NCBI GenBank assembly: GCA_016187515.1
Contig: JACPJN010000005.1
Location: 1 to 56,390 of the forward strand
DNA: 56,390 nucleotides
From: Candidatus Uhrbacteria bacterium
Lineage (GTDB): Bacteria; Patescibacteriota; Patescibacteriia; GWA2-47-26
Direction of reading: 5' to 3'
The position numbers were made by a program, and so were the translations under genes. The notes beneath the pieces are model-generated. The model had not been told where the DNA came from, searched no databases, and saw only the letters and a list, made by a program, of their open reading frames with translations. Within the stretch, counting starts at the first letter, position 1; every line of letters starts with the position of its first letter. Below are positions 1,878-25,945 of this stretch, one piece after another.

Positions 1878-1945
1878 GTCATTCCCGTGGAAACGGGAAT
1901 CCACGATTGGTCGATTGTGGATACCCGATCGCGGTCGGGGATGAC
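1878..1945. repeat. GTCAT...ATGAC bipartite palindromic element (intergenic)
   Basis: GTCATTCCCGTGGAAACGGGAATCCA...TGGATACCCGATCGCGGTCGGGGATGAC; related copies at 2250, 9353 and 19595. Confidence 0.8.
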
Positions 1946-1964
1946 CGTAAGTACATACATTACT

Positions 1965-3347
1965 ATGCAAAAGAATATCGTCATTCTTGGCGCGGGGTTT
2001 GGAGGGGTGCGGTGCGCGCTGGACCTGGCAGGGAAGGTGCCGCACGATTGGAAGGTAATCCTTGTTGATCGCAATGCGTACCATTTGTACTATCCGAGGT
2101 TGTACGAGGAAGTGATACCTCACGTATCACGTAACACGTATCACGTAACACGAAAATGCGCAGTTGACGTGAACGAGATTTTGAAAGGGACCAGGGTGGA
2201 GTTTGCGCAAGGGGAGGTGCAGGGGATTGATTGCAAAACCAAAACCGTTGTCATTTCGACCAAGCGACTCGATGGAGCGCGTGGAGAAATCTCTACCGCG
2301 AGAAATACGTATGGTAAAGAGATCTCTCGACTTCGGCCTCCGGCCTCCGCTCGAGATGACGAAAATTTTTCTTTAGCTTATGACTATCTGGTGCTTGCTT
2401 TTGGAGCGGATGCGGATTATTTTGGGATTCCGGGACTTAAGGAATATGCCTGTACGCTTAAGAGTTTGGAGGATGCGGAGATGATTCGGGAGCGGGTGGG
2501 GGAGTTTCTTAGGGTTCATAACCCACCCCGACCCCCTTCTACCCCCAGGGAGAGAGAGACGCCTTTTTCAATCGTGATCGGGGGGGCGGGAGCAACTGGA
2601 GTAGAAGTCGCGGCCGAACTGGCGTATTTATTTCGCAAGATTCCGCAAGAGCGGTGGTCAATTACGCTGGTGGAGGCGCTAAGCCACGTGCTGTGGATGT
2701 TTCCGCCAGCAGTGGGCCGGTATGCGCATAAGCGGCTCGAGGAGTTGGGAGTGAAGCTCATGCTGGATACATGTATTAAGGAGGTACTGGGTGGAGAGCG
2801 TGGAGTTGAAGTAGTCCTTGCCCCGCGGCCGCTGAAACCCGGAGAAAAGGAAAGCGAACTGGCGTGTGATTTTTTGCCGGAGCATGAAAAACGCGTGGCC
2901 GCTGACATTTTGCTTTGGGCCGGCGGTGTGCGTGCCAACACTTTAATTGCGCAGTGCGGGATTCCGACTGATCGCAAGGGACGGGTAGAAGTGGATGAAC
3001 ACTTAGTGGTGAAGGGAATGGAGGGTGTGTTTGCAATTGGCGACAACGCGGCGCTTACGGATCCGACTTCAAAGCAGCCGGTTCCGGCAATTGCCCAGGC
3101 CGCGCTTCTTGAAGGCAAGATCGCGGCGGAAAACATCGCGCGCGCAATCCGCGGACAACCGCTGGCGCTCTACCCTTTCCCACAATTTCCCGCCATTGTG
3201 CCGCTGGGCAGACGCGATGGGGTGGCCTTGCTGGGCAACCGCGTGCTGTGCGGATTGCCCGCATGGTTACTTCGCCAAATGGCGGATGGCCGATATTTTG
3301 CGAGCATTGTGGGATGGCGGAAGGCGTTGAAAAGGTGTATACTGTGA
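1965..3347 (+). CDS. ndh: Type II NADH dehydrogenase-like FAD/NAD(P) oxidoreductase with three in-frame repeat inserts
   Basis: IVILGAGFGG, YDYLVLAFG, GAGATGVEVAAEL, VFAIGD and AQAA motifs. The start is moved to ATG 1965 because the upstream extension is repeat-derived. Confidence 0.85.
   Translation: MQKNIVILGAGFGGVRCALDLAGKVPHDWKVILVDRNAYHLYYPRLYEEVIPHVSRNTYHVTRKCAVDVNEILKGTRVEFAQGEVQGIDCKTKTVVISTKRLDGARGEISTARNTYGKEISRLRPPASARDDENFSLAYDYLVLAFGADADYFGIPGLKEYACTLKSLEDAEMIRERVGEFLRVHNPPRPPSTPRERETPFSIVIGGAGATGVEVAAELAYLFRKIPQERWSITLVEALSHVLWMFPPAVGRYAHKRLEELGVKLMLDTCIKEVLGGERGVEVVLAPRPLKPGEKESELACDFLPEHEKRVAADILLWAGGVRANTLIAQCGIPTDRKGRVEVDEHLVVKGMEGVFAIGDNAALTDPTSKQPVPAIAQAALLEGKIAAENIARAIRGQPLALYPFPQFPAIVPLGRRDGVALLGNRVLCGLPAWLLRQMADGRYFASIVGWRKALKRCIL
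2250..2360. repeat. GTCAT...ATGAC palindromic element in frame within ndh (111 bp)
   Basis: GTCATTTCGAC...GAGAAATCTCT...AGAGATCTCTC...TCGAGATGAC; encodes VISTKRLDGARGEIS...RPPASARDD. Confidence 0.85.
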
Positions 3348-3351
3348 CCAT

Positions 3352-4626
3352 ATGAAATCAGCGCGGGAGCTAAAAAATATCCGCGGCAAGCGCGTACTGG
3401 TACGGGTTGATTTTAACGTGCCGTTGGCGAAGTCGTCAGTTCACAGTTCACAGTTCACAGTAGAGGACGATACGCGGATCAATGCTGCAATTCCTACGAT
3501 TGAATTTTTGCTCAAAAAGGGGGCGAAGGTGGTGTTGATGAGCCATTTTGGAAGGCCAGGAAAAATTAAAAATGTAAAATTGAAAATGAAAAATGATTTG
3601 GAACCAATTGTGGATCGGCTTAGTGAGTTGTTGAAGAAGAAAGCGGGCGGGGTGGAGAAATGGGATTTTACGCTCATTTACGAGCGAATAAAAAAAATGA
3701 AAGCCGGAGGGATTTTAATGCTTCCGAATTTGCGTTTGCATCCCGGGGAGGAAAAAAATAGCGCGGCATTTGCGCGCGATCTGGCCGGGCTGGGGCAAAT
3801 TTACGTGAACGAAGCATTTTCCGTATGCCACCGTAAGCATGCTTCCGTGGTTGGCGTGCCGAAATTTTTGCCATCCTATGCCGGACTGCAGTTGATGAAA
3901 GAAGTGGAAGTGCTTAGTCGTGTACTCCATAAACCAGAAAAGCCGCTCCTGGCGCTTATGGGTGGCGGAAAAATTGCCGATAAAATCGCACTAATGCGTG
4001 CGATGGTAAAACGCGCAAACGCAGTGCTCGTAGGCGGTGCGTTAGCTACGCATTTTTTCAAAGCCATGGGCTATGGAGTAGGCGACTCGCGCATTGAGGC
4101 CGAGGGGGTGCAGCTGGCCAAGAAGTTAGTGGGGAACCACCGCCATGGCGGGGCAAGTAAAAAAATTGTGCTTCCGCGTGATGTGGTGGTGGGAAGGGAT
4201 GATGGGGAAGGGGCGAGGGTGGTGGAGGTTCTGGCCAAGAGCCAAGAGCAAAGAGCAAAGAGCTCTACGCCCTACGCTCTATGCTCTAAGCCAGATGCCG
4301 TTTTAGACATTGGGCCGCAGACCATTTTGGAATATGCCAAACATATTAAAGGCGCGCGCACGCTGATCTGGAACGGGCCAATGGGGCTTTATGAGATAAA
4401 GCGATATTCGCATGGCACCCTTGCGCTTGGTCGGCTGTTTGCCGCGCGCTCGCGTGGGCGCGCATTTGGCGTGGCCGGAGGAGGGGAGACGATTGATGCG
4501 CTCAATCAAACCGGTATGCTGGAATATGTGGACTTTGTTTCCACCGGCGGAGGCGCGATGCTGGAGTTTTTAGGAGGCCGGAAATTACCGGGGATTGAAG
4601 CCCTGCATAACACTGAAAAACACTGA
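3352..4626 (+). CDS. pgk: Phosphoglycerate kinase
   Basis: RVLVRVDFNVP, SHFGRP, IWNGPMG and VSTGGGA motifs. Confidence 0.97.
   Translation: MKSARELKNIRGKRVLVRVDFNVPLAKSSVHSSQFTVEDDTRINAAIPTIEFLLKKGAKVVLMSHFGRPGKIKNVKLKMKNDLEPIVDRLSELLKKKAGGVEKWDFTLIYERIKKMKAGGILMLPNLRLHPGEEKNSAAFARDLAGLGQIYVNEAFSVCHRKHASVVGVPKFLPSYAGLQLMKEVEVLSRVLHKPEKPLLALMGGGKIADKIALMRAMVKRANAVLVGGALATHFFKAMGYGVGDSRIEAEGVQLAKKLVGNHRHGGASKKIVLPRDVVVGRDDGEGARVVEVLAKSQEQRAKSSTPYALCSKPDAVLDIGPQTILEYAKHIKGARTLIWNGPMGLYEIKRYSHGTLALGRLFAARSRGRAFGVAGGGETIDALNQTGMLEYVDFVSTGGGAMLEFLGGRKLPGIEALHNTEKH
4234..4290. repeat. Bipartite heptamer repeat in frame in pgk
   Basis: (AAGAGCA/C)n followed by complementary (GCTCTAC/T)n; encodes AKSQEQRAKSSTPYALCSK. 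A sibling lies in eno at 6657..6726. Confidence 0.9.
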
Positions 4627-4628
4627 AT

Positions 4629-4886
4629 ATGAACGGAAAAGACACAGAAAATAAAAAATCACTCAAAATTGAAATCGTGGAGAAACTTTCCACGCTGATG
4701 GCCGCCGGATTTGGATTGGTGGCCGCGTTGGCCTGGAACGACGCGATACAGTCGTTGTTTACAACAATCTTTCCCACTGCCTCAAATGTCGTGGCAAAAT
4801 TTGTGTACGCCGGGCTCATTACCGTGCTGGTGGTACTGGTTACCACTCGTCTGGCCCGCCTTGCGGATAGATTAAAAAAAGAATGA
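4629..4886 (+). CDS. Small two-TM protein, DUF5654-like
   Basis: AGFGLVAALAWNDAI motif. Confidence 0.75.
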   Translation: MNGKDTENKKSLKIEIVEKLSTLMAAGFGLVAALAWNDAIQSLFTTIFPTASNVVAKFVYAGLITVLVVLVTTRLARLADRLKKE

Positions 4887-5026
4887 GAGGTCAGCGAGGT
4901 ACCAGGCGGATCGGTTAGTTGCCGGGGTTTGTCAAGTGTGGTATGATAGGCGTATATAGGATTGCTCGAAAATATGACTCAAAGTGTCAATACTATACGC
5001 AATACAATATTGCAATAACAATAAAT

Positions 5027-5224
5027 ATGACTCAAACAGCACAGATTACTACCACTGAAAGAGAAATTATTATTCGCATTCCTCGTACTGTAGTTGAAAA
5101 GCAAGCAAAGAAAATAGTGAGTATCAGTCATTTACGCGGTTTAATGAAACGATCCCGATACGCGAAAGCGGGATCAGTTGCCGCACAACACGCTGCATGG
5201 AGGAAAGAAAATAATCAACAATAA
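5027..5224 (+). CDS. Small hypothetical protein, possibly an orphan antitoxin
   Basis: 65-aa ORF from ATG 5027, directly upstream of hicBA. Confidence 0.45.
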   Translation: MTQTAQITTTEREIIIRIPRTVVEKQAKKIVSISHLRGLMKRSRYAKAGSVAAQHAAWRKENNQQ

Positions 5225-5256
5225 CGTGGGCGTGGGAAGTAACTAATTTTCTTTAT

Positions 5257-5499
5257 ATGCAGATCAGTAACATCCTTACGTACACGGTTTTATTCGAACA
5301 GGCCGAGGAGGGTGGTTATGTGGCATATGCGCCGCTTCTTCCGGGTTGTCATTCGCAGGGTGAAACGCTTGAAGAAGTAGAAGTTAACATTCAAGAGGCA
5401 ATTGAGGCATATCTTGAATCCTTGCGAGCACATGGTGAAGAAGTGCCTGTGGAGCGTAAAATATTTCATGGCAGTGTGACGGTCCCTGTCGCGGTATAG
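5257..5499 (+). CDS. hicB: HicB-family antitoxin (short form)
   Basis: EEGGYVAYAPLLPGCHSQGETLEE...IQEAIEAYLE. Confidence 0.92.
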   Translation: MQISNILTYTVLFEQAEEGGYVAYAPLLPGCHSQGETLEEVEVNIQEAIEAYLESLRAHGEEVPVERKIFHGSVTVPVAV

Positions 5500-5505
5500 G
5501 AAGCT

Positions 5506-5733
5506 ATGCCCAAAGTTCCACCGCTTCAAGCAAAAGAGGTAGTCCGCGCTCTGAAGCGTCTTGGTTTTATTGAGGATCGACAAAAGGGAAGTCATCTGGT
5601 GATGTGGAATCCAAAGACAGGCGCTCGGACAGTGGTGCCGATGCATTTTGGAAAAACGCTCAAACGAGGACTTCTTTTTGGTATTATTAAAGACGCGCAG
5701 GTAAGCACAGAGGAATTTACCAAAGCATTATGA
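5506..5733 (+). CDS. hicA: HicA-family mRNA interferase toxin
   Basis: LKRLGF..RQKGSH..VVPMH..LKRG.L..I; the catalytic GSH His is present. Confidence 0.92.
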   Translation: MPKVPPLQAKEVVRALKRLGFIEDRQKGSHLVMWNPKTGARTVVPMHFGKTLKRGLLFGIIKDAQVSTEEFTKAL

Positions 5734-7049
5734 AAATCAAAAAAATTTTTGCCCAAGAGATTTTGGATAGCCGGGGAAATCCGACGGTCAAGGTGCGCGT
5801 TATGCTGCGAAATGGCGCGATGGGGGATGCGGCCGTGCCGTCGGGCGCCTCCACCGGCACGCATGAGGCGGCGGAGCTTCGTGATCACGACAAAAAGCGC
5901 TATGGCGGCAAGGGCGTGCTTAAGGCCGTGAAAAATGTAAATACGGTAATCGCAAAAAAGGTGCGCGGCATGAGCGTGGCGAATCTTCGCGCGATTGACG
6001 CAGCCATGATAAAGCTGGATGGCACAAAAAATAAACGCAAGCTCGGCGCCAATGCGATTCTGGGCGTGTCCCTGGCCTGCGCGCATGCTGGCGCCCGCGC
6101 CTCCGGTATGCCCCTTTATAAATGGCTCCGCAAAACTTACTCACTTACTCACTTACTCACTTACTCACTTCCCATCCCCACCATGAACGTCCTCAATGGC
6201 GGGGCGCATGCGGATTGGACTATTGATTTTCAAGAATGCATGATTGTGCCGCAACACCAACTGTTCCGCGAGCGAGTACGGATTGGGTCCGAAGTGTTTC
6301 ACGCCTTGCGCGCAATTTTAAAAGAAAAAGGATTTTCCGTGGGGGTCGGGGATGAAGGCGGATTTGCGCCGCGCCTGAAGCGAAACGCGGATGCCCTGGC
6401 CATGATCGCGCTGGCGGTAAAAAAATCCGGCTATCGTCTTGGCAAAGATGTTTGCTTTGCGATGGATCCGGCGGCATCAGAGTTTTATGATCCTAAGACA
6501 AAAAAATACACCTTGCGCACGGATGGGAAGGCGCTGGATGCGAAGGGCATGATTGCGATGTGGGCGGCGCTCACGAAAAAGTATCCGTTTGTTTCGCTGG
6601 AAGATGGACTGGCCGAGGATGATTGGGAAGGATGGGTTGAGTTGATGCGTACCCTGGCAAAGAGCCAAGAGCAAAGAGCAAAGAGCAAGCATCCGAACTC
6701 TACGCTCTATGCCCTACGCTCTATGCCGTTCATCATTGGGGATGATTTGTTTACCACTAATGTCGCGCGACTAAAGAAAGGGATCGCGCTTAGCGCGGCA
6801 AATGCGATTTTGATTAAAGTAAATCAAATTGGCACGCTTTCCGAAACAATTGATACGATTTTACTTGCGCAAAAACATGGCTATGCGATTTCAGTGTCGC
6901 ATCGTTCGGGCGAGACGGCCGACACGACGATTGCCGATCTTGCGGTGGCAGTGAACGCGGAGTTTATTAAAGCCGGAGCGCCTTCGCGAGGCGAACGTAT
7001 TGCAAAATACAATCGCCTTATGGAAATTGAACAAGAGCTCGCTCATTAA
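5730..7049 (+). CDS. eno: Enolase
   Basis: EILDSRGNPT, VPSGASTG, VGDEGGF, LIKVNQIG and SHRSGET motifs. Confidence 0.98.
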   Translation: MKIKKIFAQEILDSRGNPTVKVRVMLRNGAMGDAAVPSGASTGTHEAAELRDHDKKRYGGKGVLKAVKNVNTVIAKKVRGMSVANLRAIDAAMIKLDGTKNKRKLGANAILGVSLACAHAGARASGMPLYKWLRKTYSLTHLLTYSLPIPTMNVLNGGAHADWTIDFQECMIVPQHQLFRERVRIGSEVFHALRAILKEKGFSVGVGDEGGFAPRLKRNADALAMIALAVKKSGYRLGKDVCFAMDPAASEFYDPKTKKYTLRTDGKALDAKGMIAMWAALTKKYPFVSLEDGLAEDDWEGWVELMRTLAKSQEQRAKSKHPNSTLYALRSMPFIIGDDLFTTNVARLKKGIALSAANAILIKVNQIGTLSETIDTILLAQKHGYAISVSHRSGETADTTIADLAVAVNAEFIKAGAPSRGERIAKYNRLMEIEQELAH

Positions 7050-7064
7050 GAAGGAGGATAACGC

Positions 7065-7325
7065 ATGGCCTGTCCATGGTGCAAACAAGCTAACTGTGAC
7101 GGCCCGGAACGTGCCGGACCGTATTGCTGTGAATATGCCAAAGCATGCCGTAGGCGTCCTAGTCCGCCCCATCCGGACGTCGTGTTTCAGATGATCAGAG
7201 GCCGCGTGAGACCCCCGGCACTGGTGCGGATGAGGAAGGGGATATCCGTGCGCGGAGCCGCGTCTTCGCGAAAGAGGGCCGCGGATCAAAATCGTGGAGG
7301 ACCGCGTTCCAAACGCCCCGTTTAA
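7065..7325 (+). CDS. Small Cys-rich basic hypothetical protein
   Basis: AAGGAGG SD; CxxC...C...CC...C N-terminus; downstream hairpin plus T-tract at about 7348-7376. Confidence 0.5.
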   Translation: MACPWCKQANCDGPERAGPYCCEYAKACRRRPSPPHPDVVFQMIRGRVRPPALVRMRKGISVRGAASSRKRAADQNRGGPRSKRPV

Positions 7326-7404
7326 GGTCAGCTGCGCTTACGGCAGATTACCTTTTGCGGGGTACCTTCTTTTTTGGCACGCTTTCTGTTATACTATCTC
7401 AAAT

Positions 7405-9003
7405 ATGTCCACACGGCTAAAACCAGTGGTACTCATGATCCTTGACGGATTTGGCATAGCGCCGCCGGGAAACGGCAATGCCATCACGCGCGCCAAGCTG
7501 CCGGTCTATAATCGGTTGATTAGAACGTATCCGGCAGTTACGTTGCGGGCTTCCGGCGATGAAGTCGGCCTTTCTTGGGGAGAGATGGGCAATTCGGAAG
7601 TGGGGCACTTAACCATCGGCGCGGGACGGGTGTTTTATCAGACCCTGCCGCGGATTAATAAATCAATTGAGTCCGGAGATTTTTTCAAAAACGAGGCCTT
7701 TGGGAGAGCAATCCGGCAGGTGAAAAAAGAGGGCGCGACCCTGCACCTTATTGGGCTGGTTTCTCCCGGAGGCGTGCATAGCCATCAGGATCATCTTTAT
7801 AAATTGCTGGAGCTGGCCAAGAAAGAAAAAGTTAAAAATGTCGCGGTGCACGCGATTCTGGACGGACGCGATACGATCCGCGATACCGGAGCGCAATTTA
7901 TCGAAGCCCTGCGGAAAAAGATGAAAGAATTTAAAATTGGAGTGATTGCCTCGATCTCCGGCCGGTATTTTGCCATGGATCGCGACAATCGCTGGGATCG
8001 CACGGGCAAAGCGTATCGGGCGATGGTCGGGAACGGGGAGCGGGGAACGGGGAACGTAGCAACGGCGGAAGATCCCAAAAAAGCGATAGAGCAATCGTAT
8101 AAGGAAAAAGTTTATGATGAGGAATTTGTGCCGACCGTGATTGTGGAAAAAGATAAACCAGTTGCGCCGATTTCCGGAAGCGACGCGGTGATCTTTTTTA
8201 ATTTTCGCGAAGATCGGATGCGGCAGCTGGTTAAGGCCTTCGCGCTTCCCACTTTTGATAAATTCGATCGCGGAGCTTTTCCTAAAGATGCGCTTTTCGT
8301 CACGGTAACCGAATACGAAAAGGATTTGCCGGTTATTGTGGCGTTTCCGCCCGAGATTATTACGACCTGCCTTGCCAAATTGATTAGCGACGCGAAACTC
8401 AAGCAGTTTCATATTGCCGAGACGGAAAAGTACGCGCATGTCACTTTTTTCTTCAATGGCATGACCGAAGCGGCGTTTTCGGGAGAGGATCGCGAGATTA
8501 TTCCCTCGCCAAAGGTGGCCGCTTATGATAAAAAACCGGAGATGTCCGCTAAAGCCGTCGCGGACCGAGTGATCAAAGAGATTCAAAGCGGCAAGCCCGA
8601 TTTTATCGCGCTTAATTTTGCCAATCCGGATATGGTCGCGCATACCGGAGATCTTAAGGCGACGATCGCGGGATTGGAAGCCGTGGACGCGGAAGTGGGC
8701 CGGATTGTTGAGGCGACGCTCGCGAAAGGGGGGATGGCCTTGCTTACCGCCGATCACGGTAACGCGGAAGAGCTCGTTAATTTGCAAACCGGCAAAATGG
8801 ATAAAGAACATTCGACGAATCCGGTACCTTGCGTAGTTATCGGCGCTGCTTACGAGGGCCAAGGCGGGCCGCAAATCGAGGCGGTCGGAGGCGATCTGTC
8901 GCTGCTCCAGCCGGTGGGCACGCTCTCGGACGTGGCGCCCACCGTGCTTAAACTGATGGGACTCAAAAAACCGAGGGAAATGACGGGAGTGCCGCTTGTT
9001 TGA
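7405..9003 (+). CDS. gpmI: 2,3-BPG-independent phosphoglycerate mutase
   Basis: LMILDGFG, MGNSEVGH, AETEKYAHVTFF and TADHGNAE motifs. Confidence 0.98.
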   Translation: MSTRLKPVVLMILDGFGIAPPGNGNAITRAKLPVYNRLIRTYPAVTLRASGDEVGLSWGEMGNSEVGHLTIGAGRVFYQTLPRINKSIESGDFFKNEAFGRAIRQVKKEGATLHLIGLVSPGGVHSHQDHLYKLLELAKKEKVKNVAVHAILDGRDTIRDTGAQFIEALRKKMKEFKIGVIASISGRYFAMDRDNRWDRTGKAYRAMVGNGERGTGNVATAEDPKKAIEQSYKEKVYDEEFVPTVIVEKDKPVAPISGSDAVIFFNFREDRMRQLVKAFALPTFDKFDRGAFPKDALFVTVTEYEKDLPVIVAFPPEIITTCLAKLISDAKLKQFHIAETEKYAHVTFFFNGMTEAAFSGEDREIIPSPKVAAYDKKPEMSAKAVADRVIKEIQSGKPDFIALNFANPDMVAHTGDLKATIAGLEAVDAEVGRIVEATLAKGGMALLTADHGNAEELVNLQTGKMDKEHSTNPVPCVVIGAAYEGQGGPQIEAVGGDLSLLQPVGTLSDVAPTVLKLMGLKKPREMTGVPLV

Positions 9004-9085
9004 GTGAAGTAAATCAGGTGAATCAAGTAAATTAAGTAAATCAAGCCCGTGATTTACCTGTCTTGCCTGATTTACTTGATTTACC
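9004..9085. repeat. Bipartite inverted 9-mer tandem repeat
   Basis: (GTAAATCAA/G)n followed by (TGATTTACY)n, between gpmI and mutM. Confidence 0.9.
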
Positions 9086-9093
9086 CAAAACCC

Positions 9094-10020: not shown

Positions 10021-10040
10021 GCTATTTCCAGGTAAAACAC

Positions 10041-10069
10041 TTGACAAAGTGGGCTTTCTGTGGTATACT
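10041..10069 (+). promoter_or_regulatory. Sigma70-type promoter
   Basis: TTGACA-17-TATACT, followed by TGTTCTTTGATAA. Confidence 0.8.
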
Positions 10070-10074
10070 GCATT

Positions 10075-10378
10075 GTTCTTTGATAATGGGATTTATAGCG
10101 AAATAGGCGAGTGAAGCGCAAGGTGTCTTTCGTCTTTTTCCTCCCCTTAGGTTAAGGGGAGGTAGGAGGGGTTACGAGTCATGCACGGCTCATAACTCAC
10201 CCTACCCTCTCTTAACTTAAGAGAGGGAATACGATTGGACATCGCGCGCTTCACTCGATTCTCTGGGTGCGCTAAAGGGAATCCCATGCCGGGAAACCCA
10301 AGGTCATGCGACCGTTGCGACTAGGCCTGGAGATCAACTCCTGTCCCGACGTAAAGTCGGGAACAAGGGGAGGGACCG
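10075..10378 (+). ncRNA. Candidate structured leader or ncRNA with a nested palindromic element
   Basis: A 12-bp stem (10108..10119 with 10246..10257) encloses an inverted pair of CCCCT..TTAAG..GGGG elements; further hairpins follow. Confidence 0.4.
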
Positions 10379-11290: not shown

Positions 11291-11311
11291 AAAAATCCCA
11301 TTCGGGTTGTA

Positions 11312-11357
11312 CCCCGCCCAGTGCGCAAGCGCTGTGGCGGGGTTGATTTTTTTTATT
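11312..11357 (+). terminator. Rho-independent terminator
   Basis: CCCCGCC...GGCGGGG followed by a T-tract. Confidence 0.7.
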
Positions 11358-11446
11358 GGGCGGGGTAAGGTGGGGGAATAATTGTGTGGGCGGAGAATGA
11401 CCCCTCCTATCCTCCCCTTGAAAAGGGGAGGAAATTGAAAGACAAT

Positions 11447-12598
11447 ATGCCGATATTGGGAATTGACGCTTCGCGGGCGGTGAAAAAGGAGAAAACTGGG
11501 GTGGAGTGGTATTCTTGGCATTTGCTTCAGGCCATGCAGAAACTAGCACCTCCCGATTGGCGGGTTCGTCTTTATGTTCCAGAGGAAATTGGAAATTGGA
11601 AATTAGAAATTAGAAATTGGCAGTGGCGCGTGCTCAAGTGGATCGGGCGGGGGTGGACGCAGGGACGGCTCTCGCTGGAGATGATGAAAAGCCCGCCGGA
11701 TATATTGTTCGTGCCATCGCATACGATTCCGTTGGTGCATCCCGAGCGCACTGTAACTACTGTGCATGATGTGGTGTTCGCGCGACATCCGGAATTATAT
11801 GATCCTAAGGACTTGAAAGCGCAAAAGCGCGGACTGGATTTTGCTTTGAAGTTTGCCAGAAAAATTATTGTGCCGAGCAAGGCAACGCGGGAGGAGGTGG
11901 TGCGGGCAGGGGCGAGAGAGGAGCAGGTGGTAGTGGTGCCGCATGGAGTTGGTGTTGGTGATTGGGGATTAGTTAATTCGTTAATTCAAAACGAATCGTC
12001 TAATCAACCAATTAACCAATCAACCAATCAACGATACATTCTCTTCATCGGCCGCATTGAAAAAAAGAAAAATGTGCTGGGGTTGGTGCAGGCGTTTCGA
12101 CGGTTGATGCATAACGCCCCCCAACCCCCTCTTACCTTAAGAGGGGGAGACGAATTGAAGCTCGTGCTTGCCGGTTCGCTTGGCTACGGGGCAGAAGACG
12201 TACTCCAGGCCATCAAAACTTTCAAACTTGAGGACCGCGTGATACACTTAGGGTATGTGGAGCGCGCGCAGTATCAGACACTGCTAAAGAACGCCGCGCT
12301 CCTGGCATCCCCTTCTTTTGGCGAAGGATTTGGATTTCCGGTTTTGGAAGCCATGGCGGCCGGCGTGCCGGTGGTCTGTGCTGACTTGCCGGTGCTTCAC
12401 GAGGTTGGCGGCAACGCGGCGCAGTATGTTAATCCGCGCGATCCGGAAGATATCGCGCGCGGCATTGAAGGCGTGCTTCAAAATGAAATGCTGCAATCGG
12501 AAATGATCAAGCGGGGGAAGGAAATTGCGGCGGAATTTACCTGGGAAAAGACCGCGCGAGAAACTTGGAATGTGCTATGCAATATAGCTGGCCGCTGA
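11447..12598 (+). CDS. GT4/GT-B glycosyltransferase with three in-frame repeat inserts
   Basis: GIDASR, TTVHDV, FIGRIEKKKN and EGFGFPVLEAMAAGVPV motifs. Confidence 0.93.
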   Translation: MPILGIDASRAVKKEKTGVEWYSWHLLQAMQKLAPPDWRVRLYVPEEIGNWKLEIRNWQWRVLKWIGRGWTQGRLSLEMMKSPPDILFVPSHTIPLVHPERTVTTVHDVVFARHPELYDPKDLKAQKRGLDFALKFARKIIVPSKATREEVVRAGAREEQVVVVPHGVGVGDWGLVNSLIQNESSNQPINQSTNQRYILFIGRIEKKKNVLGLVQAFRRLMHNAPQPPLTLRGGDELKLVLAGSLGYGAEDVLQAIKTFKLEDRVIHLGYVERAQYQTLLKNAALLASPSFGEGFGFPVLEAMAAGVPVVCADLPVLHEVGGNAAQYVNPRDPEDIARGIEGVLQNEMLQSEMIKRGKEIAAEFTWEKTARETWNVLCNIAGR

Positions 12599-13488: not shown

Positions 13489-13501
13489 TCCCTAATCGCC
13501 T

Positions 13502-14560: not shown

Positions 14561-14565
14561 TTTTT

Positions 14566-15117
14566 ATGATTAATCTCGATGGTTCAAAATCAGAATTTGA
14601 AAAAAGCGTCACTCACCTCAAATCCGAACTGGGTGGTCTACGGAGTACGCGAGCCACCCCCGCGCTGGTTGAGCATGTGATGGTTGAAGTATATGGTTCA
14701 AAACAATCCTTGAAGGCCCTGGCTTCAATTTCAGTAGTTGATCCGAAAACGCTTACGATTGAACCCTGGGACAAATCAATTGCCAAAGAGATTGAACGCG
14801 CGGTAAGCGCGGCCAACCTGGGAATAAATCCGGTTAATGAGGGGCAGATTATTCGGATTATTTTACCGCCGCTTACGGAGGAATCCCGAAAAGAGCTGGT
14901 CAAGATTATTCACGATCGTCTGGAATCCGTCCGACAGGCCCTGCGTACTCTACGGGAAAAATTGCGGCAGCAGATTATTGACGCGGAAAAGAAAAAGGAG
15001 ATTAGTGAAGATGAAAAGTATAAGCAACTGGAAAAGCTCGATAAGCTGGTAGGGGAGTATAATGAACAAGTCAAAAAATTAGGAGAGAGTAAAGAAAAAG
15101 AAATAATGACGGTGTAA
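14566..15117 (+). CDS. frr: Ribosome recycling factor
   Basis: LRSTRATPALV, IEPWDKS, PPLTEESRKELVK and KEKEIMTV motifs. Confidence 0.97.
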   Translation: MINLDGSKSEFEKSVTHLKSELGGLRSTRATPALVEHVMVEVYGSKQSLKALASISVVDPKTLTIEPWDKSIAKEIERAVSAANLGINPVNEGQIIRIILPPLTEESRKELVKIIHDRLESVRQALRTLREKLRQQIIDAEKKKEISEDEKYKQLEKLDKLVGEYNEQVKKLGESKEKEIMTV

Positions 15118-15232
15118 CAGGTATCGTTGGCGGTATCGTAGCCCGTATCGTAGGATGGTATGGGTGTCGTCAATTGACGTAACCGTGTAACGACACCGAT
15201 ACGAGCAGCGAAACCCACACCGTCTCGCGACA
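15118..15232. repeat. Degenerate bipartite tandem repeat with ~12-nt units
   Basis: (GTATCGT-containing)n followed by complementary (ACGACAC/GATACGA)n, between frr and glyQS. Confidence 0.65.
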
Positions 15233-15244
15233 TCTTTCACTAAT

Positions 15245-16555
15245 ATGGAAAATTTGATGGACAAGGTCGTATCACTCGCCAAGCGGCGAGGTTTTATATT
15301 TCCCGGCAGCGAAATTTATGGGGGGCTGGGGGGGACGTGGGATTACGGTCCGGCCGGCGCGCTTTTGAAAAAGAATTTGAAAGATAGTTGGTGGAAAGAC
15401 CTGGTGCAGCTGCGCGGCGATATTGTGGGAGTAGATGCCGCGATCATGATGAACCCAAAGGCCTGGGAAGCATCGGGACACACGCAGGCGTTTGTTGATC
15501 CTTTGGTTGAGTGTAAGCTATGCCATGAGCGATATCGGGCGGACCACGCGGATGAGATCGCGCTGCATGAGAAAAAACATAAAGGGAAAACAGTTGACTG
15601 GACCGAGCCGCGGCAGTTTAATCTGCTCGTGCGCGCGTATTTGGGAGTTGTGGAAGGCGCGCAATCCGAGATTTTTTTGCGCGGAGAGATTACCAATGGC
15701 GCGCAGGTAAATTTCAAAAATGTGTTGGATTCCACACGGGTGAAAATTCCGTTTGGCGTTGCGCAAATTGGGAAAGCGTTTCGCAATGAAATTACGCCGG
15801 GCAATTTTACGTTCCGCTCGCGCGAATTTGAACAGATGGAGGTACAGTTTTATATCAAGCCCGAGGAAAAAGAAGGAAAGAAATGGTTTGATTACTGGAA
15901 GAAGAATCGCATGGCTTGGTATGTCGGGCTGGGAATGAGCAAAAAGAATCTGCGTTTTCGCGACCACGCGGACGATGAACGCGCGCATTATGCGCGCGCC
16001 GCCACTGATATTGAGTATAAAACGCCTTGGGGCTGGCAGGAATTTATGGGCATTCATCACCGCGGCGATTATGACCTGGCCCGGCATCAGCAGTACTCCA
16101 AAGTTGATTTGCGCTACCGCGATCCGTACACCGGCGAGGCGTATTTGCCATGGGATATTGAAACTTCGGCCGGCGTTGATCGCTCAATTTTGTTTTTGTT
16201 GATTGACGCCTACCATGAAGAAGGCGAGCGAGTGGTGCTGAAATTGCACCGCACGCTTGCCCCGTACAAAGTCGCGGTGTTCCCGCTGCTTGCCAACAAG
16301 CCGCAGTTGGTTGAAAAGGCGCGCGAAATTTATGATACATTGAAACCGCACTACATGGTGGCCTGGGACGAACGCGGCAACATCGGCAAACGCTACTTCG
16401 CCCAAGACGAAATCGGCACGCCGTATTGCGTAACAGTGGACTTTGAAAGCGTGGAGGATAAAAAAGTCACCGTGCGGGACAGAGATACAATGAGGCAGGA
16501 GCGGTTCGATATCAACGAATTGATAGATTATCTACAACAGAAATTAAGATTGTGA
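15245..16555 (+). CDS. glyQS: Glycine-tRNA ligase (alpha2 type)
   Basis: SLAKRRGF, WDYGP.G, QIGKAFRNEITP, FRSREFEQME and QDEIGTP motifs. Confidence 0.97.
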   Translation: MENLMDKVVSLAKRRGFIFPGSEIYGGLGGTWDYGPAGALLKKNLKDSWWKDLVQLRGDIVGVDAAIMMNPKAWEASGHTQAFVDPLVECKLCHERYRADHADEIALHEKKHKGKTVDWTEPRQFNLLVRAYLGVVEGAQSEIFLRGEITNGAQVNFKNVLDSTRVKIPFGVAQIGKAFRNEITPGNFTFRSREFEQMEVQFYIKPEEKEGKKWFDYWKKNRMAWYVGLGMSKKNLRFRDHADDERAHYARAATDIEYKTPWGWQEFMGIHHRGDYDLARHQQYSKVDLRYRDPYTGEAYLPWDIETSAGVDRSILFLLIDAYHEEGERVVLKLHRTLAPYKVAVFPLLANKPQLVEKAREIYDTLKPHYMVAWDERGNIGKRYFAQDEIGTPYCVTVDFESVEDKKVTVRDRDTMRQERFDINELIDYLQQKLRL

Positions 16556-16584
16556 TTGGTGAGGTTTGCTTTAACGACAATGTT

Positions 16585-16920
16585 ATGTCAAACAGAAAGA
16601 TAACGCTGCTTTACTTCGCCTCTGTCGGTCTGAGCGCACTAGTATTTCCGTTTCTTGTGTATTTTATGCACTACACCGGAGGCCCACAAAGATCGATTCC
16701 ATTCTGGTTCTTGGTCTTTGAGATACTATCTCTAGGAGGATTTACCATCCCAATTATTATTTATGTTATTTTTCCGCTCCATACATTGCACTTCACAGAT
16801 GGTTCTCGTAAATACCTCCACCACCTGTGCATATTAGCTATTGGCATCATACTATATGTGGTGATGGTGATTCTTCTTTTTGGCTTTTTGAACGTTTCAC
16901 CCGCAGTGTTGCCTTTATGA
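16585..16920 (+). CDS. Hypothetical three-TM membrane protein
   Basis: AT-rich hydrophobic ORF. Confidence 0.6.
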   Translation: MSNRKITLLYFASVGLSALVFPFLVYFMHYTGGPQRSIPFWFLVFEILSLGGFTIPIIIYVIFPLHTLHFTDGSRKYLHHLCILAIGIILYVVMVILLFGFLNVSPAVLPL

Positions 16921-17001
16921 GGTGTCATTCGTCGAGACTGTGGTAATAGTAATCACTCCACTCGCGGTGAGGTGAGAAAAAGTAAAAACTAGCCCGTCAT
17001 A

Positions 17002-17752
17002 ACTCGTCCTGCATTTGGCTCGATCGCGTCAATGTCAAGACGACTTGGAAATGAAATTTTATGATTATGATTTTCATAAATTACTATGGGTTCGAAATTG
17101 ACTAAAGTTCAGATTACGCTTTTGGAACTTTTTGCGGTCTATCGGGATATTGATGACGCGCTGGCGTCCTATCGGCCATTGTATCCGAGTTTGAAATATG
17201 AACCTGCATATTTTATTGAGAAAGGGCGCAGGCGAGCAAAAAAAGAACAGGCCCAGCTTCGCAAACACCTTGATTATCTCAAGAGCCGGCATTATATTGA
17301 GGTGAAAAATGAGGGGGAGGAAAAATTGGTTCGTCTGACTGCCAAAGCCAAGTACGAATTATTGCGGCTTCAGTTTGCGTTGCACATGCGCGCTCAAAGA
17401 AAGCGCGCGTGGGATCGGAAGTGGCGGCTGGTTATTTTTGATGTACCGGAAATTCGAAAGAGATACCGTGATTTTTTGCGTAAACTCATGCGCGTAAACG
17501 GTTTTCGTATGTGGCAGTTGTCGGTATGGGTGTCACCATATAATCCGGAGCCGCACCTTTCGAATCTGCTTCAGTATTTGGGTATTGAAAAGCATTACGA
17601 GCTGATTGAGGCAGACTGCGCAAAATGCAGTCCGCGCCTACTCCACAAGTTTGCTGAAGTAAAGTAGGGTTGTGAAAGCAGGCAATGCGGTGATGTATCT
17701 CTAACCTAAGTCGTCTTGCAAAAAACGCGATCGCGCCAAATGCGGGACGAGT
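17002..17752. mobile_element. Putative element: 45-bp imperfect inverted repeats (17002..17046 and 17708..17752) around a PaaX/Cas2-like gene
   Basis: 38 of 45 nt match between the left arm and the reverse complement of the right arm. Mobility is inferred. Confidence 0.55.
17086..17667 (+). CDS. PaaX-like protein: winged helix plus Cas2/VapD-like domain
   Basis: YLKSRHYI..VRLTAKA wing; WDRKWRLVIFDVPE..RDFLR..GF..WQLSVW. Confidence 0.85.
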   Translation: MGSKLTKVQITLLELFAVYRDIDDALASYRPLYPSLKYEPAYFIEKGRRRAKKEQAQLRKHLDYLKSRHYIEVKNEGEEKLVRLTAKAKYELLRLQFALHMRAQRKRAWDRKWRLVIFDVPEIRKRYRDFLRKLMRVNGFRMWQLSVWVSPYNPEPHLSNLLQYLGIEKHYELIEADCAKCSPRLLHKFAEVK

Positions 17753-17832
17753 AGTATTATGGGGCATGGATGGCGTGGTGAGGATAATTGTTGCCTTGTA
17801 GCATATTTGCGTGCGTGATATAATCACTCTCT

Positions 17833-18135
17833 ATGAATTGTGCATGTTGCGGCAGAGATTGCCCGGACATTACAAAACACCATCTTGTGCCGCGCACTCG
17901 GCACAGTAATAAAAAAACGAAGAAATGTTTTACTCGTGCAGAGTTACAAACGACAGTAGATTTTTGTCGTTCCTGTCATCGGCAAGTGCACGCGCTCTTT
18001 ACCGAAAAGGAGCTTGAACGTTCTTATTTTACTCTTGCGGCATTGCTGACGCATCCCGCAATGTCTCAGTTTATTAATTGGATTAAAACCAAATCCGCTG
18101 ATGTGCGGCCGAGGGTAAAGAGGTTAAATTCATAA
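17833..18135 (+). CDS. Small HNH endonuclease
   Basis: CxxC..TKHHLVPR..CRSCHRQVH. Confidence 0.85.
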   Translation: MNCACCGRDCPDITKHHLVPRTRHSNKKTKKCFTRAELQTTVDFCRSCHRQVHALFTEKELERSYFTLAALLTHPAMSQFINWIKTKSADVRPRVKRLNS

Positions 18136-18181
18136 CTCCCCCTACCCCCTCTTACCTTAAGAGGGGGGAAATTACCAAAGT

Positions 18182-19480
18182 ATGTTTGAAAAGAGAATAC
18201 TTAAAAATGGAGTAACCGTGGTGCATGTGCCGCTGGTCTCAACCAAGGCGGCCACAGTTTTGGTTTTGTTTCGGGTGGGATCGCGGTATGAGACGCGCAA
18301 TATCAACGGGATCGCGCATTTTGTGGAGCACATGATGTTTAAGGGGACGAAAAAGCGGCCGACCACCCTGCATATTTCCAAAGCGTTGGATCGGTATGGC
18401 GCGGAATACAACGCGTTTACCAGTAAAGATCAAACCGGTTACTACATTAAAATAGATCGCGATAAACTCGGCGAGGCCATGGATATTTTGTTTGACATGC
18501 TGCTGCACTCCAAAATTGATCCGGCCGAAGTAGATCGTGAGCGCAAGGTGATTTTTGAGGAAATAAAAATGCATGATGAAAATCCGCTGATGCATATTGA
18601 GGATATGTTTGAGAGCGTGCTTTTCCGCGGCTCAACCTTGGGATGGGACATCGCTGGCACTAAAGAGAGCATGTCCAAAGTAACGCGGCAAAACATCGCG
18701 GACTTTGTGCATGATTACTACCGGCCCTCACGTACGCTGGTGGTGGTGTGCGGAAATGTGGATGAACATATTTTCAAAGATGTGGAGAAGGGGACCCGGC
18801 AGTTGCGCGAGCCAAGACATCGTGAGCGAGTATGGAAACCGTGGGTTTCCGCCCCTCACCCTGCCCTCTCCCGCGGGGAGAGGGGTGCCGCAGGCCGGGT
18901 GAGAGTGCAATTTAAGGAATTGGAGCAAACCCAACTCATGCTCGGGTTTCCCGCGTATAAGTATGGCGACGAGCGGCTACTTACGCTTTCGCTTTTGCAT
19001 GTGATATTGGGCGGGACGATGTCTTCGCGACTATTCGTGGCCGTGCGCGAGCGGCGCGCGCTGGCCTATACGGTGCGTACGGATGTGGGGAGTTATGAAG
19101 ACACGGGATCGTTCTCTGTCCATGCCGGTCTGGACGCGGCGCGCGTGCCCGAGGCAATCAAAGTAATCCGCGCTGAACTTTCTCGTGTAGTAAAAAGTGG
19201 TGTGACAGCGCGCGAGCTGGAGGACGCGAAAAATACGATTAAGGGACGCACGGTGTTAAGTTTGGAAGAATCCAATGATCTTGCGGGCTGGTTTGCCAAG
19301 CAAGAGCTTTTTCAGGGCAAGATGGAAACACCGGAGGAGCGGTTTAAAAAACTTGATGCGGTAACGCGCGAAGATGTGTTGCGCGTAGCGCGTCAAGTAA
19401 TTCAACCCCGCAAAATGGCCGCGGCGGTAATTGGACCGTTTAAGGAGGAGGGGAAAGTGCGTGGGTATTTGTTTAAGTAA
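18182..19480 (+). CDS. M16 (pitrilysin) family zinc peptidase
   Basis: VGSRYE, HFVEH (HxxEH), NAFTS and SSRLF..VRE motifs; in-frame PHPALSRGERG insert at 18852..18885. Confidence 0.95.
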   Translation: MFEKRILKNGVTVVHVPLVSTKAATVLVLFRVGSRYETRNINGIAHFVEHMMFKGTKKRPTTLHISKALDRYGAEYNAFTSKDQTGYYIKIDRDKLGEAMDILFDMLLHSKIDPAEVDRERKVIFEEIKMHDENPLMHIEDMFESVLFRGSTLGWDIAGTKESMSKVTRQNIADFVHDYYRPSRTLVVVCGNVDEHIFKDVEKGTRQLREPRHRERVWKPWVSAPHPALSRGERGAAGRVRVQFKELEQTQLMLGFPAYKYGDERLLTLSLLHVILGGTMSSRLFVAVRERRALAYTVRTDVGSYEDTGSFSVHAGLDAARVPEAIKVIRAELSRVVKSGVTARELEDAKNTIKGRTVLSLEESNDLAGWFAKQELFQGKMETPEERFKKLDAVTREDVLRVARQVIQPRKMAAAVIGPFKEEGKVRGYLFK

Positions 19481-19489
19481 ATGTCATAA

Positions 19490-19620
19490 TTCCCACTATT
19501 CCTTATTACCTCCGACGCCCTGCGGGGTCGGAGTCCGACCTCCGACGCTCCGGTCGGAGCAGGCGAAGCGTCGGACTTAAGAGGGGGGATCGACTAGATT
19601 CCCGCGTGCGCGGGAATGAC
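19490..19620. repeat. Nested cluster of three palindromic element families
   Basis: A TTACC|TTAAGAGGGGG element is split by CCGAC-type hairpins (19510..19576) and followed by GATTCCCGCGTGCGCGGGAATGAC. Confidence 0.8.
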
Positions 19621-19626
19621 ATTGTT

Positions 19627-20358
19627 ATGAAAAAACTTATTGTGGCGAATTGGAAAATGTACCTTACTCTTAGTCAGAGCGTAACTCTGACTAAGAGAAT
19701 TTCCAAATCACAAATCACAAATCACAAATTGAGGGTGGTGCTGTGTCCGTCTTTTGTGGCGCTGGAGGAAGTGGGAAAGATCGTGCATGGCACGCGCGTG
19801 AAACTTGGCGCGCAGGATGTTGAGCCGGAAAAGCGCGGGGCGTTTACCGGCGAGGTGGGACTTGACGATCTGGCCTCACTTCAGGTAGAATACGTCCTTG
19901 TTGGCCATTCCGAGCGGCGGCGGATTTTCCATGAAACCGATGCGCTGGTCAACGAAAAGTTGCGCGCGGTAATCAAAGCCGGAATGCGGCCGATCCTATG
20001 TGTCGGGGAGCCGCATGGCGTGAGAACGCAGGGGATGGCGAAGGTACGAAGGTATGTAGGTACGCAGGTAAAAACTGGACTTCGCGGTGTGGCGAAGAAA
20101 GATTTAAGGCGTACCGTGATTGCCTACGAGCCGATTTGGGCGATTGGGAGTGGAAAATCTGATATGCCTGAAGACGCGGTCCAAATGCACGCCTGGATTC
20201 GTAAGGTTGTCGGTATCAAAAGCGTGCGGATTCTCTACGGCGGCAGCGTCAGCGCAAAAAACGCCCGCGCGTTTCTGCGCGCGCCGGGTATAGACGGTCT
20301 GCTGATTGGAAAAGCGAGCGTTAACCTCGGTCAGTGGCGAGCGATTACTCATCTATAA
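19627..20358 (+). CDS. tpiA: Triosephosphate isomerase
   Basis: VANWKM, GHSERR, AYEPIWAIG and YGGSV motifs. Confidence 0.97.
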   Translation: MKKLIVANWKMYLTLSQSVTLTKRISKSQITNHKLRVVLCPSFVALEEVGKIVHGTRVKLGAQDVEPEKRGAFTGEVGLDDLASLQVEYVLVGHSERRRIFHETDALVNEKLRAVIKAGMRPILCVGEPHGVRTQGMAKVRRYVGTQVKTGLRGVAKKDLRRTVIAYEPIWAIGSGKSDMPEDAVQMHAWIRKVVGIKSVRILYGGSVSAKNARAFLRAPGIDGLLIGKASVNLGQWRAITHL

Positions 20359-25903: not shown

Positions 25904-25945
25904 TTTGTAAATTGTGGTTTCCTTGGGATTTGTGATTTGGAATTT
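25827..25945. repeat. Bipartite inverted heptamer repeat (CAAATNN)n/(NNATTTG)n
   Basis: Shares CAAATTCCAAATTACAAACAAATC and TTTGTGATTTGGAATTT with 46537..46650. Confidence 0.9.

Follow-up and report, generated by a model that had tools for sequence, protein, structure and literature searches.

Among the closest described counterparts of the repeats analyzed here are the Rickettsia palindromic elements (RPE), which Ogata and colleagues reportedly found in 2000 to lie in frame in housekeeping genes, to be apparently translated and tolerated at loops, and to have hairpin potential. The RPE are roughly 100-150 bp in size, and we know of no transposase for them. The small dispersed repeats (SDR) of Nostoc are also relevant, being said (Elhai and colleagues, in 2008) to be unique sequences of 21-27 nt inserted into tandem heptamer arrays; we are aware of no enzyme for them either. 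Here we describe tandem arrays of 7-9-nt units in a stretch of 56,390 nucleotides (the window) of Candidatus Uhrbacteria bacterium, for which a preliminary description, made from the sequence alone, had reported in-frame 7- and 8-mer repeats in housekeeping genes, including those of the glycolytic enzymes pgk, eno, gpmI and tpiA. The window, contig C5, comes from a genome of 1.215 Mb (10 contigs, 51-53% GC) that is 100% complete by marker genes. The arrays found in it exemplify very small periodic repeat modules that occur throughout the genome. Our preferred reading, which we hold with about even confidence, is that periodic modules of ~30 nt are copied between loci, are replaced at conserved tolerant sites, and are filtered by selection for loops, and that they are not phase switches.

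Like the Nostoc SDR, these modules look mobile, are well under 100 nt and are associated with heptamer arrays; the difference is that here the periodic array itself is the dispersed unit. An excess of heptamers in bacteria has been noted since a survey of 2007 and, by the account in PMC4692102, had received no detailed study, slippage being proposed as its source; the tandem heptamers of cyanobacteria and the GGGAATC repeats of Xanthomonas are cases of such an excess of heptanucleotide simple sequence repeats (SSR). Our arrays resemble those in the over-representation of tandem heptamers, their occasional arrangement as inverted stem-loop pairs and the turnover of length and sequence between related genomes. 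However, the repeats covered in that account are mainly intergenic and of one or few unit types (PMC4692102), whereas this genome has 61 heptamer units as well as 8- and 9-mers, and 117 of its 154 period-7 arrays lie in open reading frames (ORFs), including those of core enzymes. The TAACTGA direct repeats of Beggiatoaceae, cyanobacteria and Bacteroidetes are likewise heptamers, present in 2-6 copies at many loci, for which mobility was raised as a possibility without an evident mechanism, and their copies in ORFs occur in one orientation only, the other orientation encoding stops (PMC4679880). They differ from our arrays in being a single unit type, mainly intergenic, with most copies just upstream of start codons; the ORF copies treated in the relevant passages of PMC4679880 are mainly at protein ends or in hypothetical proteins, and those passages contain no comparison of orthologous sites.

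Tandem arrays were called with Tandem Repeats Finder (TRF) in the window and in the whole genome, with order-2 and order-5 Markov shuffles as controls. The genome contains 1059 non-redundant arrays at TRF >=30 (189 and 238 in the order-2 and order-5 shuffles, respectively), 516 at TRF >=40 (33 and 43), and 278 at TRF >=50 (5 and 4). Period 7 is dominant, with 230 arrays vs 20 and 25 in the shuffles; there are 231 arrays of period 9 (vs 32 and 36) and 112 of period 8 (vs 36 and 31). ORFs were called by greedy choice of the longest frame, a crude procedure that covered 87-93% of each contig. At TRF >=40, the 516 arrays divide into 335 inside these ORFs, 63 that cross an ORF end, and 118 in intergenic DNA; at TRF >=50, 72 of the 86 period-7 arrays are within ORFs. 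Although the majority of arrays are genic, their density per base is 3-5 times higher in intergenic DNA. At least one array is present in 123 of 1208 ORFs, and the arrays are spread over all deciles of gene length. In the window, TRF identified an array at every position given in the preliminary description, all within six uninterrupted ORFs, which Pfam named as PGK, enolase, TIM, iPGM/metalloenzyme, Pyr_redox_2 (NDH-2-like) and a GT4/GT1 glycosyltransferase, so the claim that the four glycolytic enzymes are hit was borne out. The enolase octamer array is real and perfect, its copy number being 4.5 and not four. The phenomenon had been delimited to positions 2121..20070; it is in fact genome-wide and extends to 9-mer units and inverted pairs.

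For three runs of a single groundwater study, the per-run contigs reproduced window positions 2051-20100 with 0 differing letters and 0 gaps, and a run of a second study gave identical low-depth pieces of the window. Contigs do end at some arrays, because 31-mers of the arrays recur elsewhere in the genome, and these breaks are what might prompt suspicion of an assembly or sequencing artefact, which the preliminary description had itself named as a way in which it could fail. We regard an artefact as virtually inconceivable, as the same sequence was obtained from separate runs and studies, the frames are intact and bear signatures of selection, and arrays of the same kind are present at the same sites in independently assembled relatives.

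The arrays fall into families. At TRF >=40 the period-7 arrays comprise only 61 canonical units, and the unit recurs at another locus in 125 of the 154 arrays, where 200 within-unit letter shuffles gave a mean of 50 and a maximum of 63. Recurring units also account for 46 of 68 arrays of period 8 (null mean 10.7) and 53 of 78 of period 9 (null mean 4.7). The units have a GC content of 28-34% (0.32 for period 7) in a genome of 52% GC. The AGTTCAC family, of which pgk 3431-3461 is a member, was found at 36 loci (25 sense in ORFs, 3 antisense and 8 intergenic); its copies are all about 31 nt (4.4 units), contain one or two variable units and have unrelated flanks. The modules at pgk 4234-4290 and eno 6654-6727 have 33 nt in common at 97% identity and belong to a two-arm family present at 12 places that encodes EQRAKS...STPYAL, and the main unit of the hairpin family at 9007-9085 occurs in 28 arrays. 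A module is thus ~30 nt, or ~4.3 copies of a 7-, 8- or 9-nt unit, and the copy-number peak of 4.0-4.5 units is the same for intergenic arrays as for those in ORFs, its low side being truncated by the score threshold. The preliminary description had reasoned that only certain copy numbers keep the frame. The ORFs are indeed intact, but the intergenic copies also have ~4.3 units, so that the module itself, besides selection for frame, appears to set the size. Judged by sequence, local slippage did not produce the arrays, which are dispersed modules drawn from a restricted number of families; the families, the fixed size of ~31 nt and the unrelated flanks agree with the repeat-copying or mobilizing process that had been suggested for them.

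The families bear directly on a purely local origin, in which slippage would create and re-homogenize each array in place, selection would pass the in-frame states, and recurrence of units would reflect mutational or selective convergence with no copying between loci. We consider such an origin unlikely. It is in line with the ascription of heptamer excess in many bacteria to polymerase slippage (PMC4692102, in the account given there) and with the heptamer arrays of unrelated genomes. Perfect period-7 runs in ORFs, moreover, have a second mode at 21-27 matched bases (23 runs vs 12 at 14-20), a bimodality that we first read as an ancestral unit plus three added units, a view dropped once the fixed 31-nt modules, intergenic ones included, were seen. 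Against a local origin stand the presence of one 31-nt sequence, with its internal variant unit, at 36 loci with unrelated flanks, the near-identical 33 nt of pgk and eno, the recurrence of units well above the shuffle maximum, the AT-richness of the units, and the equal size of intergenic and coding copies.

The comparison with relatives indicates that sites of arrays persist. It was made with 778 kb of G003, a genome of the same family and another genus (453 reciprocal-best ORF pairs, mean identity 66.7%). Arrays in genes with a reciprocal-best ortholog numbered 103, of which 14 were dropped as the alignment anchor lay beyond the gene end. With G003 arrays counted at TRF >=34, 36 of the remaining 89 arrays have an array at the aligned site in G003, vs 703 of 8768 (8.0%) random positions in the same genes; the canonical unit is common to both genomes at only one of these 36 shared sites. 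The reciprocal test from G003 gave an array at 28 of 46 sites, one of them with the same unit. Among the 19 pairs in which both arrays have period 7, the best-rotation distance is 0, 1 and 2 in one pair each and at least 3 of 7 positions in 16. The net length difference from the G003 ortholog has its mode at 0 (17/89) and is -2 to +3 aa in 41 of 89; the positive tail has peaks at +9 (5 cases) and +10 aa (2 cases), which is the size of a whole module, and not at +7.

Individual sites are consistent with this pattern. The first enolase loop has (ACTTACTC)4.5 in our genome, (GCTCTAC)x5 in L002 and (AGAGTTA)x3.9 in G003, and the tpiA site at 19704 has another heptamer array in G003 (canonical unit AACGTGT, net length 0). 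The metagenome relatives L111 and L114, with PGK 68% identical to that of the window, carry the AGTTCAC module at the pgk 3431..3461 site; 3 of its 31 nt are altered, compared with 22 of the 52 nt that follow (counted by eye). Other heptamer arrays occupy the pgk 3560..3596 site in L114 and in L113/G003 (L113 and G003 were not counted as independent, because L113 may be the same organism as G003). The last pgk site contains quite different hairpin inserts in L111 and L112 and none in L113, and the ndh 2121..2152 loop has a different heptamer array, AGGTKTC, in L114. One AAAATGT array is conserved between our genome and G003, with 2 of 32 nt changed vs 7 of 24 in the flank (by eye). Periodicity is regenerated or replaced at fixed sites and does not simply decay: sites persist and content turns over. 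The term invasion used in the preliminary description applies in part; shared sites in the other genus have the unit replaced, often at equal length. A local origin would explain the persistence of sites and the arrays of two genera at the same sites with units that differ and yet remain periodic; it would not explain 31-nt modules at 36 loci, the AT-richness, or length differences of a whole module.

Relatives' enzymes also contain in-frame hairpin repeats of other kinds, namely a GTCATTCCCGCGAAAGCGGGAATC type in the L111 PGK (L111/L114 around 4800-4990) a GTAG...CTAC-ended palindrome in the L112 PGK, and an insert encoding EIATSPTAPRNDG in the L113 NDH.

Alignment to orthologs and mapping on structures, both proposed in the preliminary description, defined the inserts relative to homologs in the Protein Data Bank (PDB) and placed the modules in predicted loops. 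Compared with PDB 1vpe, PGK is longer by 7 aa at SSVHSSQ, by about 4 aa at KIKNVKLKMKN, and by about 14 aa at AKSQEQRAKS...CS. Compared with 4yws, enolase has +6 aa at the first array and about +20 at the second module; gpmI 8029..8056 adds about +6 aa relative to 1ejj. Not all arrays are net insertions, however: relative to 1b9b the tpiA 19704 array causes no length change (the 20039 array adds about +2 aa), and enolase loop 1 differs in length from that of 29 same-class relatives by no more than +1 aa, several lineages among these relatives having unrelated extra segments at the second enolase site. AlphaFold2 models of enolase (pLDDT 93.2, 30-row alignment) and PGK (86.8, 14 rows) place every pgk and eno module between secondary-structure elements. 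In enolase these are residues 137-148 (loop 1) and 318-333 (pLDDT <50 at 322-329), and in PGK residues 28-34 (between two strands), 69-78 (pLDDT <50) and 294-312 (pLDDT 65-67); enolase loop 1 is the only one without a drop in pLDDT.

Composition of the coding arrays also points to selection on the peptide. The antisense strand is open in every frame in 36 coding 7/8-mer arrays, and 32 of these have the more hydrophilic orientation (binomial p about 2e-6), with A>T on the sense strand in 31 of the 36 and T>A in 4; for coding arrays overall the counts are 102 and 42. The consensus unit has a sense-strand stop triplet in 60 of 152 coding arrays, and none of these is in frame, as follows from the arrays lying in open ORFs. 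In the 18 coding AGTTCAC copies, variant units are found in 15 of 20 cases where TTC is in the Phe phase vs 14 of 52 in other phases (Fisher p = 3e-4). Counted by reading frame, the copies of this family number 8, 2 and 8, which is no significant bias (p = 0.14). The coding modules are probably translated and filtered by selection, because of their loop positions, the avoidance of stops and Phe, and the hydrophilic orientation, in agreement with the filter for frame and surface loops that had been proposed. At C4:284914-284943 and in its G003 ortholog, in a membrane-like context, the arrays encode hydrophobic peptides (LLLTTYYLL and FVIGYWLLV, respectively), and it seems that sequence context decides which module orientation survives.

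Slippage-based phase variation had been offered as an alternative in the preliminary description: a change in unit number would switch these genes on and off as contingency loci. The argument for it is a logical one, that unit lengths are not multiples of three and a change of one unit shifts the frame. All of the ORFs are intact, however, and contigs of four runs showed no insertion or deletion at any array, with the proviso that contigs drop rare variants. The targets in the window are core glycolytic enzymes and not surface, virulence or restriction genes; the arrays are distributed along the whole gene length with no concentration at the 5' end; and orthologous arrays persist across genera, one of them with its sequence conserved. 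Phase variation thus appears very improbable to us.

Some of the modules have two arms and form predicted hairpins, and it is these that invite comparison with the RPE. An inverted partner within 70 nt was found for 74 of 365 arrays (2 of 365 for the reversed control and 15 for the complement control), and by location for 23 of 231 arrays within ORFs, 19 of 47 arrays at an ORF edge, and 32 of 87 intergenic ones. Windows of 100 nt that fold at least 8 kcal/mol better than shuffles made up 0.22 of coding, 0.34 of edge and 0.37 of intergenic arrays, vs 0.07 of array-free coding controls. The two-arm modules gave fold z-scores of -3.31 (pgk), -6.05 (eno), -5.54 (glycosyltransferase) and -8.42 (intergenic, 9004-9088), and single arrays in pgk, tpiA and eno were about 0. 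Where the reverse complement of a family contains stops (as with AGTTCAC and CAAATCA), its copies in genes are single arms of one orientation, and its intergenic copies form inverted pairs. Inverted-pair copies are common after stop codons and also occur in frame in pgk, eno and the glycosyltransferase. No Rfam family matched in the region.

The modules accordingly resemble RPE in being dispersed repeat families in frame in housekeeping genes (at least 103 arrays in ORFs with a reciprocal-best ortholog), apparently translated, tolerated at loops and with hairpin potential (z -3.3 to -8.4 in two-arm copies). They are set apart from RPE by size, as modules are about 31 nt and paired ones 57-84 nt. 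They are furthermore built of tandem 7-9-nt units, are mostly single arms, belong to another lineage, and are found at sites common to genera with their sequence swapped. The analogy with RPE drawn in the preliminary description suits the two-arm copies in pgk, eno and the glycosyltransferase; most of the coding copies are single-arm and not palindromic.

The 9-mer hairpin family has the form (AGTAAATCA)x4, a short loop and (TGATTTACT)x4, with the alternative unit GCGAGACAA, in dozens of copies that include contigs C2, C4, C6, C7 and C9. These hairpins look like putative terminators, because many start 2-9 nt after a stop codon. In another intergenic family, a central palindrome TAAACAA-TCCCAAA...TTGGGATTTGTTTAG is flanked by the arms (CTAATTNNC)n and (AATTAGGTS)n; members are present, for example, at C2:12829-12936, C3:20493-20615, C6:243124-243162 and possibly at window 46537-46629. 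Its right arm, with a repeated AGGTGA motif that is Shine-Dalgarno-like, often stops 2-10 nt upstream of a start codon. Scans of viral contigs were uninformative: the AGTTCAC module had no match, and the 24 contigs matched by (GTAAATCAR)x3 contain unrelated Ser-Lys-coding 9-nt repeats, which belong to AT-rich genomes and lack an inverted partner.

Positions of this kind raise the question of whether the arrays are functional motifs (protein- or RNA-binding arrays, terminators, ribosome-binding sites or uptake signals) kept by selection or molecular drive, with coding copies being tolerated by-products or acting at the mRNA level. Besides the placement of the 9-mer hairpins after stop codons and of the AGGTGA-containing arrays ahead of start codons, such a role is suggested by the conservation of the pgk array between genera (28 of 31 nt, beside a more diverged flank) and of the AAAATGT array, by the proposal that TAACTGA heptamer repeats are regulator binding sites (PMC4679880), and by the glycolytic cluster, where window 2000-20100 has 13 arrays with 7-9-nt units vs 4.5 expected at the genome-wide rate (Poisson p about 8e-4). 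This last test is post hoc, because the region was picked for its repeats. Sequence-specific function is disfavored, because it would not allow the differing units at shared sites (35 of 36) or, with 61 different heptamer units, such variety; single coding arrays are also without predicted structure and the region lacks an Rfam match. Overall we hold functional motifs to be a rather improbable explanation.

Known mobile repeats offer partial parallels. The REP/REPIN sequences with RAYT transposases (on which see PMC3733652 and PMC3116915) are short dispersed hairpins at gene ends, and our paired intergenic 9-mer hairpins are similar in position. However, the arms here are tandem arrays, about two thirds of the arrays are inside ORFs, and the genome has no Y1/RAYT gene: profile searches gave 0 matches for PF01797 (Y1_Tnp/RAYT), which as a control was found in 6 of 14 reference genomes, and 0 matches for PF00078 (RVT_1), PF01867 (Cas1), PF07282 (the zinc-ribbon domain of TnpB) and PF01609 (DDE_Tnp_1). 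Nor do the modules look like miniature inverted-repeat transposable elements (MITE), as DDE_Tnp_1 is lacking, only one possible target-site duplication (6 nt) was seen by eye in the flanks of 11 family members, and an rve integrase ORF is unlinked to the arrays. The tandem repeats of Borgs are pervasive and fast-evolving and add disordered hydrophilic segments to proteins, as do ours, but they are described as arising independently at each place in giant archaeal extrachromosomal elements (PMC9879509); their unit length inside genes is divisible by 3, whereas here units of 7-8 nt form dispersed families on a bacterial chromosome.

We propose that whole modules may be copied between loci, with no need of the mobilizing enzyme families that were searched. 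Our best guess at the route would be a template switch linked to replication or repair, or a gene-conversion-like copy, either of which would jointly account for the lack of target duplications, the replacement at equal length and the absence of a transposase. An incoming copy would land in, or overwrite, sites that already hold or tolerate a module. Between genes, the paired form is found at gene ends; in genes the ribosome would read modules through as loop segments of roughly 10 residues, and selection would retain copies that keep the frame, lack in-frame stops and encode a hydrophilic peptide. This would be why the coding copies of certain families are restricted to one arm and one orientation. 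A bolder form of the proposal, which we consider possible but doubtful, is that this lineage of small-genome groundwater bacteria maintains ~30-nt periodic cassettes at set places within essential genes and at the borders of genes, and time and again overwrites them from a genome-specific repertoire by templated copying that requires no transposase. If so, it would amount to a novel class of mobile or concertedly evolving DNA, able to rewrite protein loops at constant length.

Several points weigh against the preferred reading or limit it. Units of orthologous period-7 arrays show a small excess of similarity over permuted pairings (mean distance 2.89 vs 3.38 +/- 0.19, p about 0.01). In one shared pair, (AGGGGCT)n in our genome and (AGGAATT)n in G003, the third unit is the variant one in both genomes and the two units differ by the same three transitions throughout. 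The enolase loop-1 units hold the codons of a locally conserved Y-x-L motif, which fits an origin in place. Heptamer arrays are found in unrelated bacteria, and a general property of polymerases could therefore contribute. One rve integrase ORF and two tyrosine recombinases are present and remain candidate mobilizers, and the enzyme search covered seven families in a genome of 10 contigs. The p-values of the array tests are optimistic, because copies of a family are not independent; the ORF calls are crude, and the case for translation is made from selection signatures. Finally, the copying mechanism is purely our deduction, as no junction, empty-site pair or intermediate among the data shows copying.

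The density of 7-9-nt arrays at TRF >=40 is 0.247 per kb in our genome, with 129 in 778 kb of G003, 3 in 20 kb of G002, 0 in 40 kb of G001, 11 in 280 kb of 14 other genomes of the class (one of them in an ORF), and 0.062 per kb, concentrated in few loci, in 80 loci of unrelated bacteria. Dense colonization of genes is therefore specific to a sub-lineage, and heptamer arrays as such are widespread. G000 and G003 are the genomes of high density, and G001 and G017 are examples of low density. Among the unrelated bacteria, loci L034, L038, L083 and L097 (Candidatus Sediminicultor, Anaerolineales, Anaerolineae and Chitinophagaceae) have many heptamer arrays round enolase, up to 11 in 8 kb. A pattern search across the class, which is weak evidence, gave 29 overlapping matches in G000 and 7 in G003, with the reversed control pattern found in 10 genomes; the matches listed outside these two all had 3 mismatches, and the majority were arrays in which an altered unit was regularly repeated. 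The search shows only that many kinds of heptamer array occur in the class.

The heptamer excess of bacteria has long been noted without a mechanism, and this genome and G003 provide a dense and tractable case, in which hundreds of fixed-size modules fall into families and their gain, loss and replacement can be read against the structures and orthologs of well-understood enzymes. In the literature searched, in-frame 7/8-mer modules have not been described for CPR or Patescibacteria genes. If modules are swapped at conserved sites, surface loops of essential proteins would be remodeled rapidly with frame and length kept, and this would indicate an unrecognized DNA-copying activity. In practical terms, the modules break short-read assemblies, and added protein segments of ~10 residues are to be expected in annotation and homology modeling. 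The arrays of the window are listed in Table 1.

Table 1. Periodic arrays and modules of the window (positions on the forward strand; copy numbers and match percentages from TRF).
Feature	Position	Strand	ORF	Details	Encoded peptide
ndh-like (Pyr_redox_2) array, (CACGTAW)n	2120-2152	+	1887-3347	7-mer x4.7, or 14-mer x2.3 at 100% match	HVSRNTYHVTR (2121..2152)
pgk, AGTTCAC-family 31-nt module	3431..3461	+	3352-4626	TRF 3437-3461, CAGTTCA x3.6, 100% match	SSVHSSQFTV
pgk, imperfect heptamer array, GAAAAAT-like	3560..3596	+	3352-4626	x5.3, 76% match	KIKNVKLKMKN
pgk, two-arm hairpin module, (AAGAGCA)n then (CTACGCY)n	4234..4290	+	3352-4626	TRF 4237-4263, AAGAGCA x3.9	AKSQEQRAKSSTPYALCS
Enolase, octamer array, ACTTACTC	6135..6170	+	5730-7049	x4.5, 100% match	TYSLTHLLTYSL
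Enolase, two-arm hairpin module	6654..6727	+	5730-7049	Family of pgk 4234-4290; TRF 6657-6688, 6700-6727	AKSQEQRAKSKHPNSTLYALRSMP
gpmI, heptamer array, (GGGAACG)n	8029..8056	+	7294-9003	x4.0	
Intergenic hairpin, 9-mer arrays (AAGTAAATC)n and (TGATTTACY)n	9007..9085	.		Begins 4 nt past gpmI stop codon	
Glycosyltransferase, heptamer array, (GGAAATT / AGAAATT)n	11584..11620	+	11384-12598	x5.3	EIGNWKLEIRNW
Glycosyltransferase, two-arm module	11949..12032	+	11384-12598	Right arm (AATCAACC)x3.9; TRF 11968-11987, 12002-12032; in GT4-GT1 linker (Pfam domain limits 39-189 and 207-380)	
tpiA, perfect heptamer array, (CAAATCA)n	19704..19729	+	19606-20358	x3.7, 100% match	KSQITNHK
tpiA, weak octamer array, CGAAGGTA-like	20039..20070	+	19606-20358	x4.0, 83% match; least convincing of the arrays listed	
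Intergenic inverted heptamer pair, (ACAAATN)n then (NATTTGT)n	25826..25945	.		Unit family of the tpiA array; TRF rows 25827-25945	

Further segments of the window vary between relatives. At about 4137-4157 in pgk (residues 263-269, HRHGGAS) there is a 21-nt segment with a 12-nt palindrome, CCGCCATGGCGG, that is absent from L112 and L113; in L111 both of its halves are tandemly duplicated to give 14 aa, and in our PGK model pLDDT is <50 at residues 264-268. The ndh ORF has ~27 aa more than L114 at 2289-2375, a segment that contains (CGGCCTC)x2.3 and has no significant structure (fold z = -0.78), and L113 has a different segment of ~25 aa there. Lastly, contigs from other parts of the genome join at window positions 10138-10178, 11399-11437, 12120-12149 and 18129-18167, and the loose ends at these four places share a consensus such as CTCCCCTTAAGGTAAGGG, which points to a further dispersed intergenic repeat.

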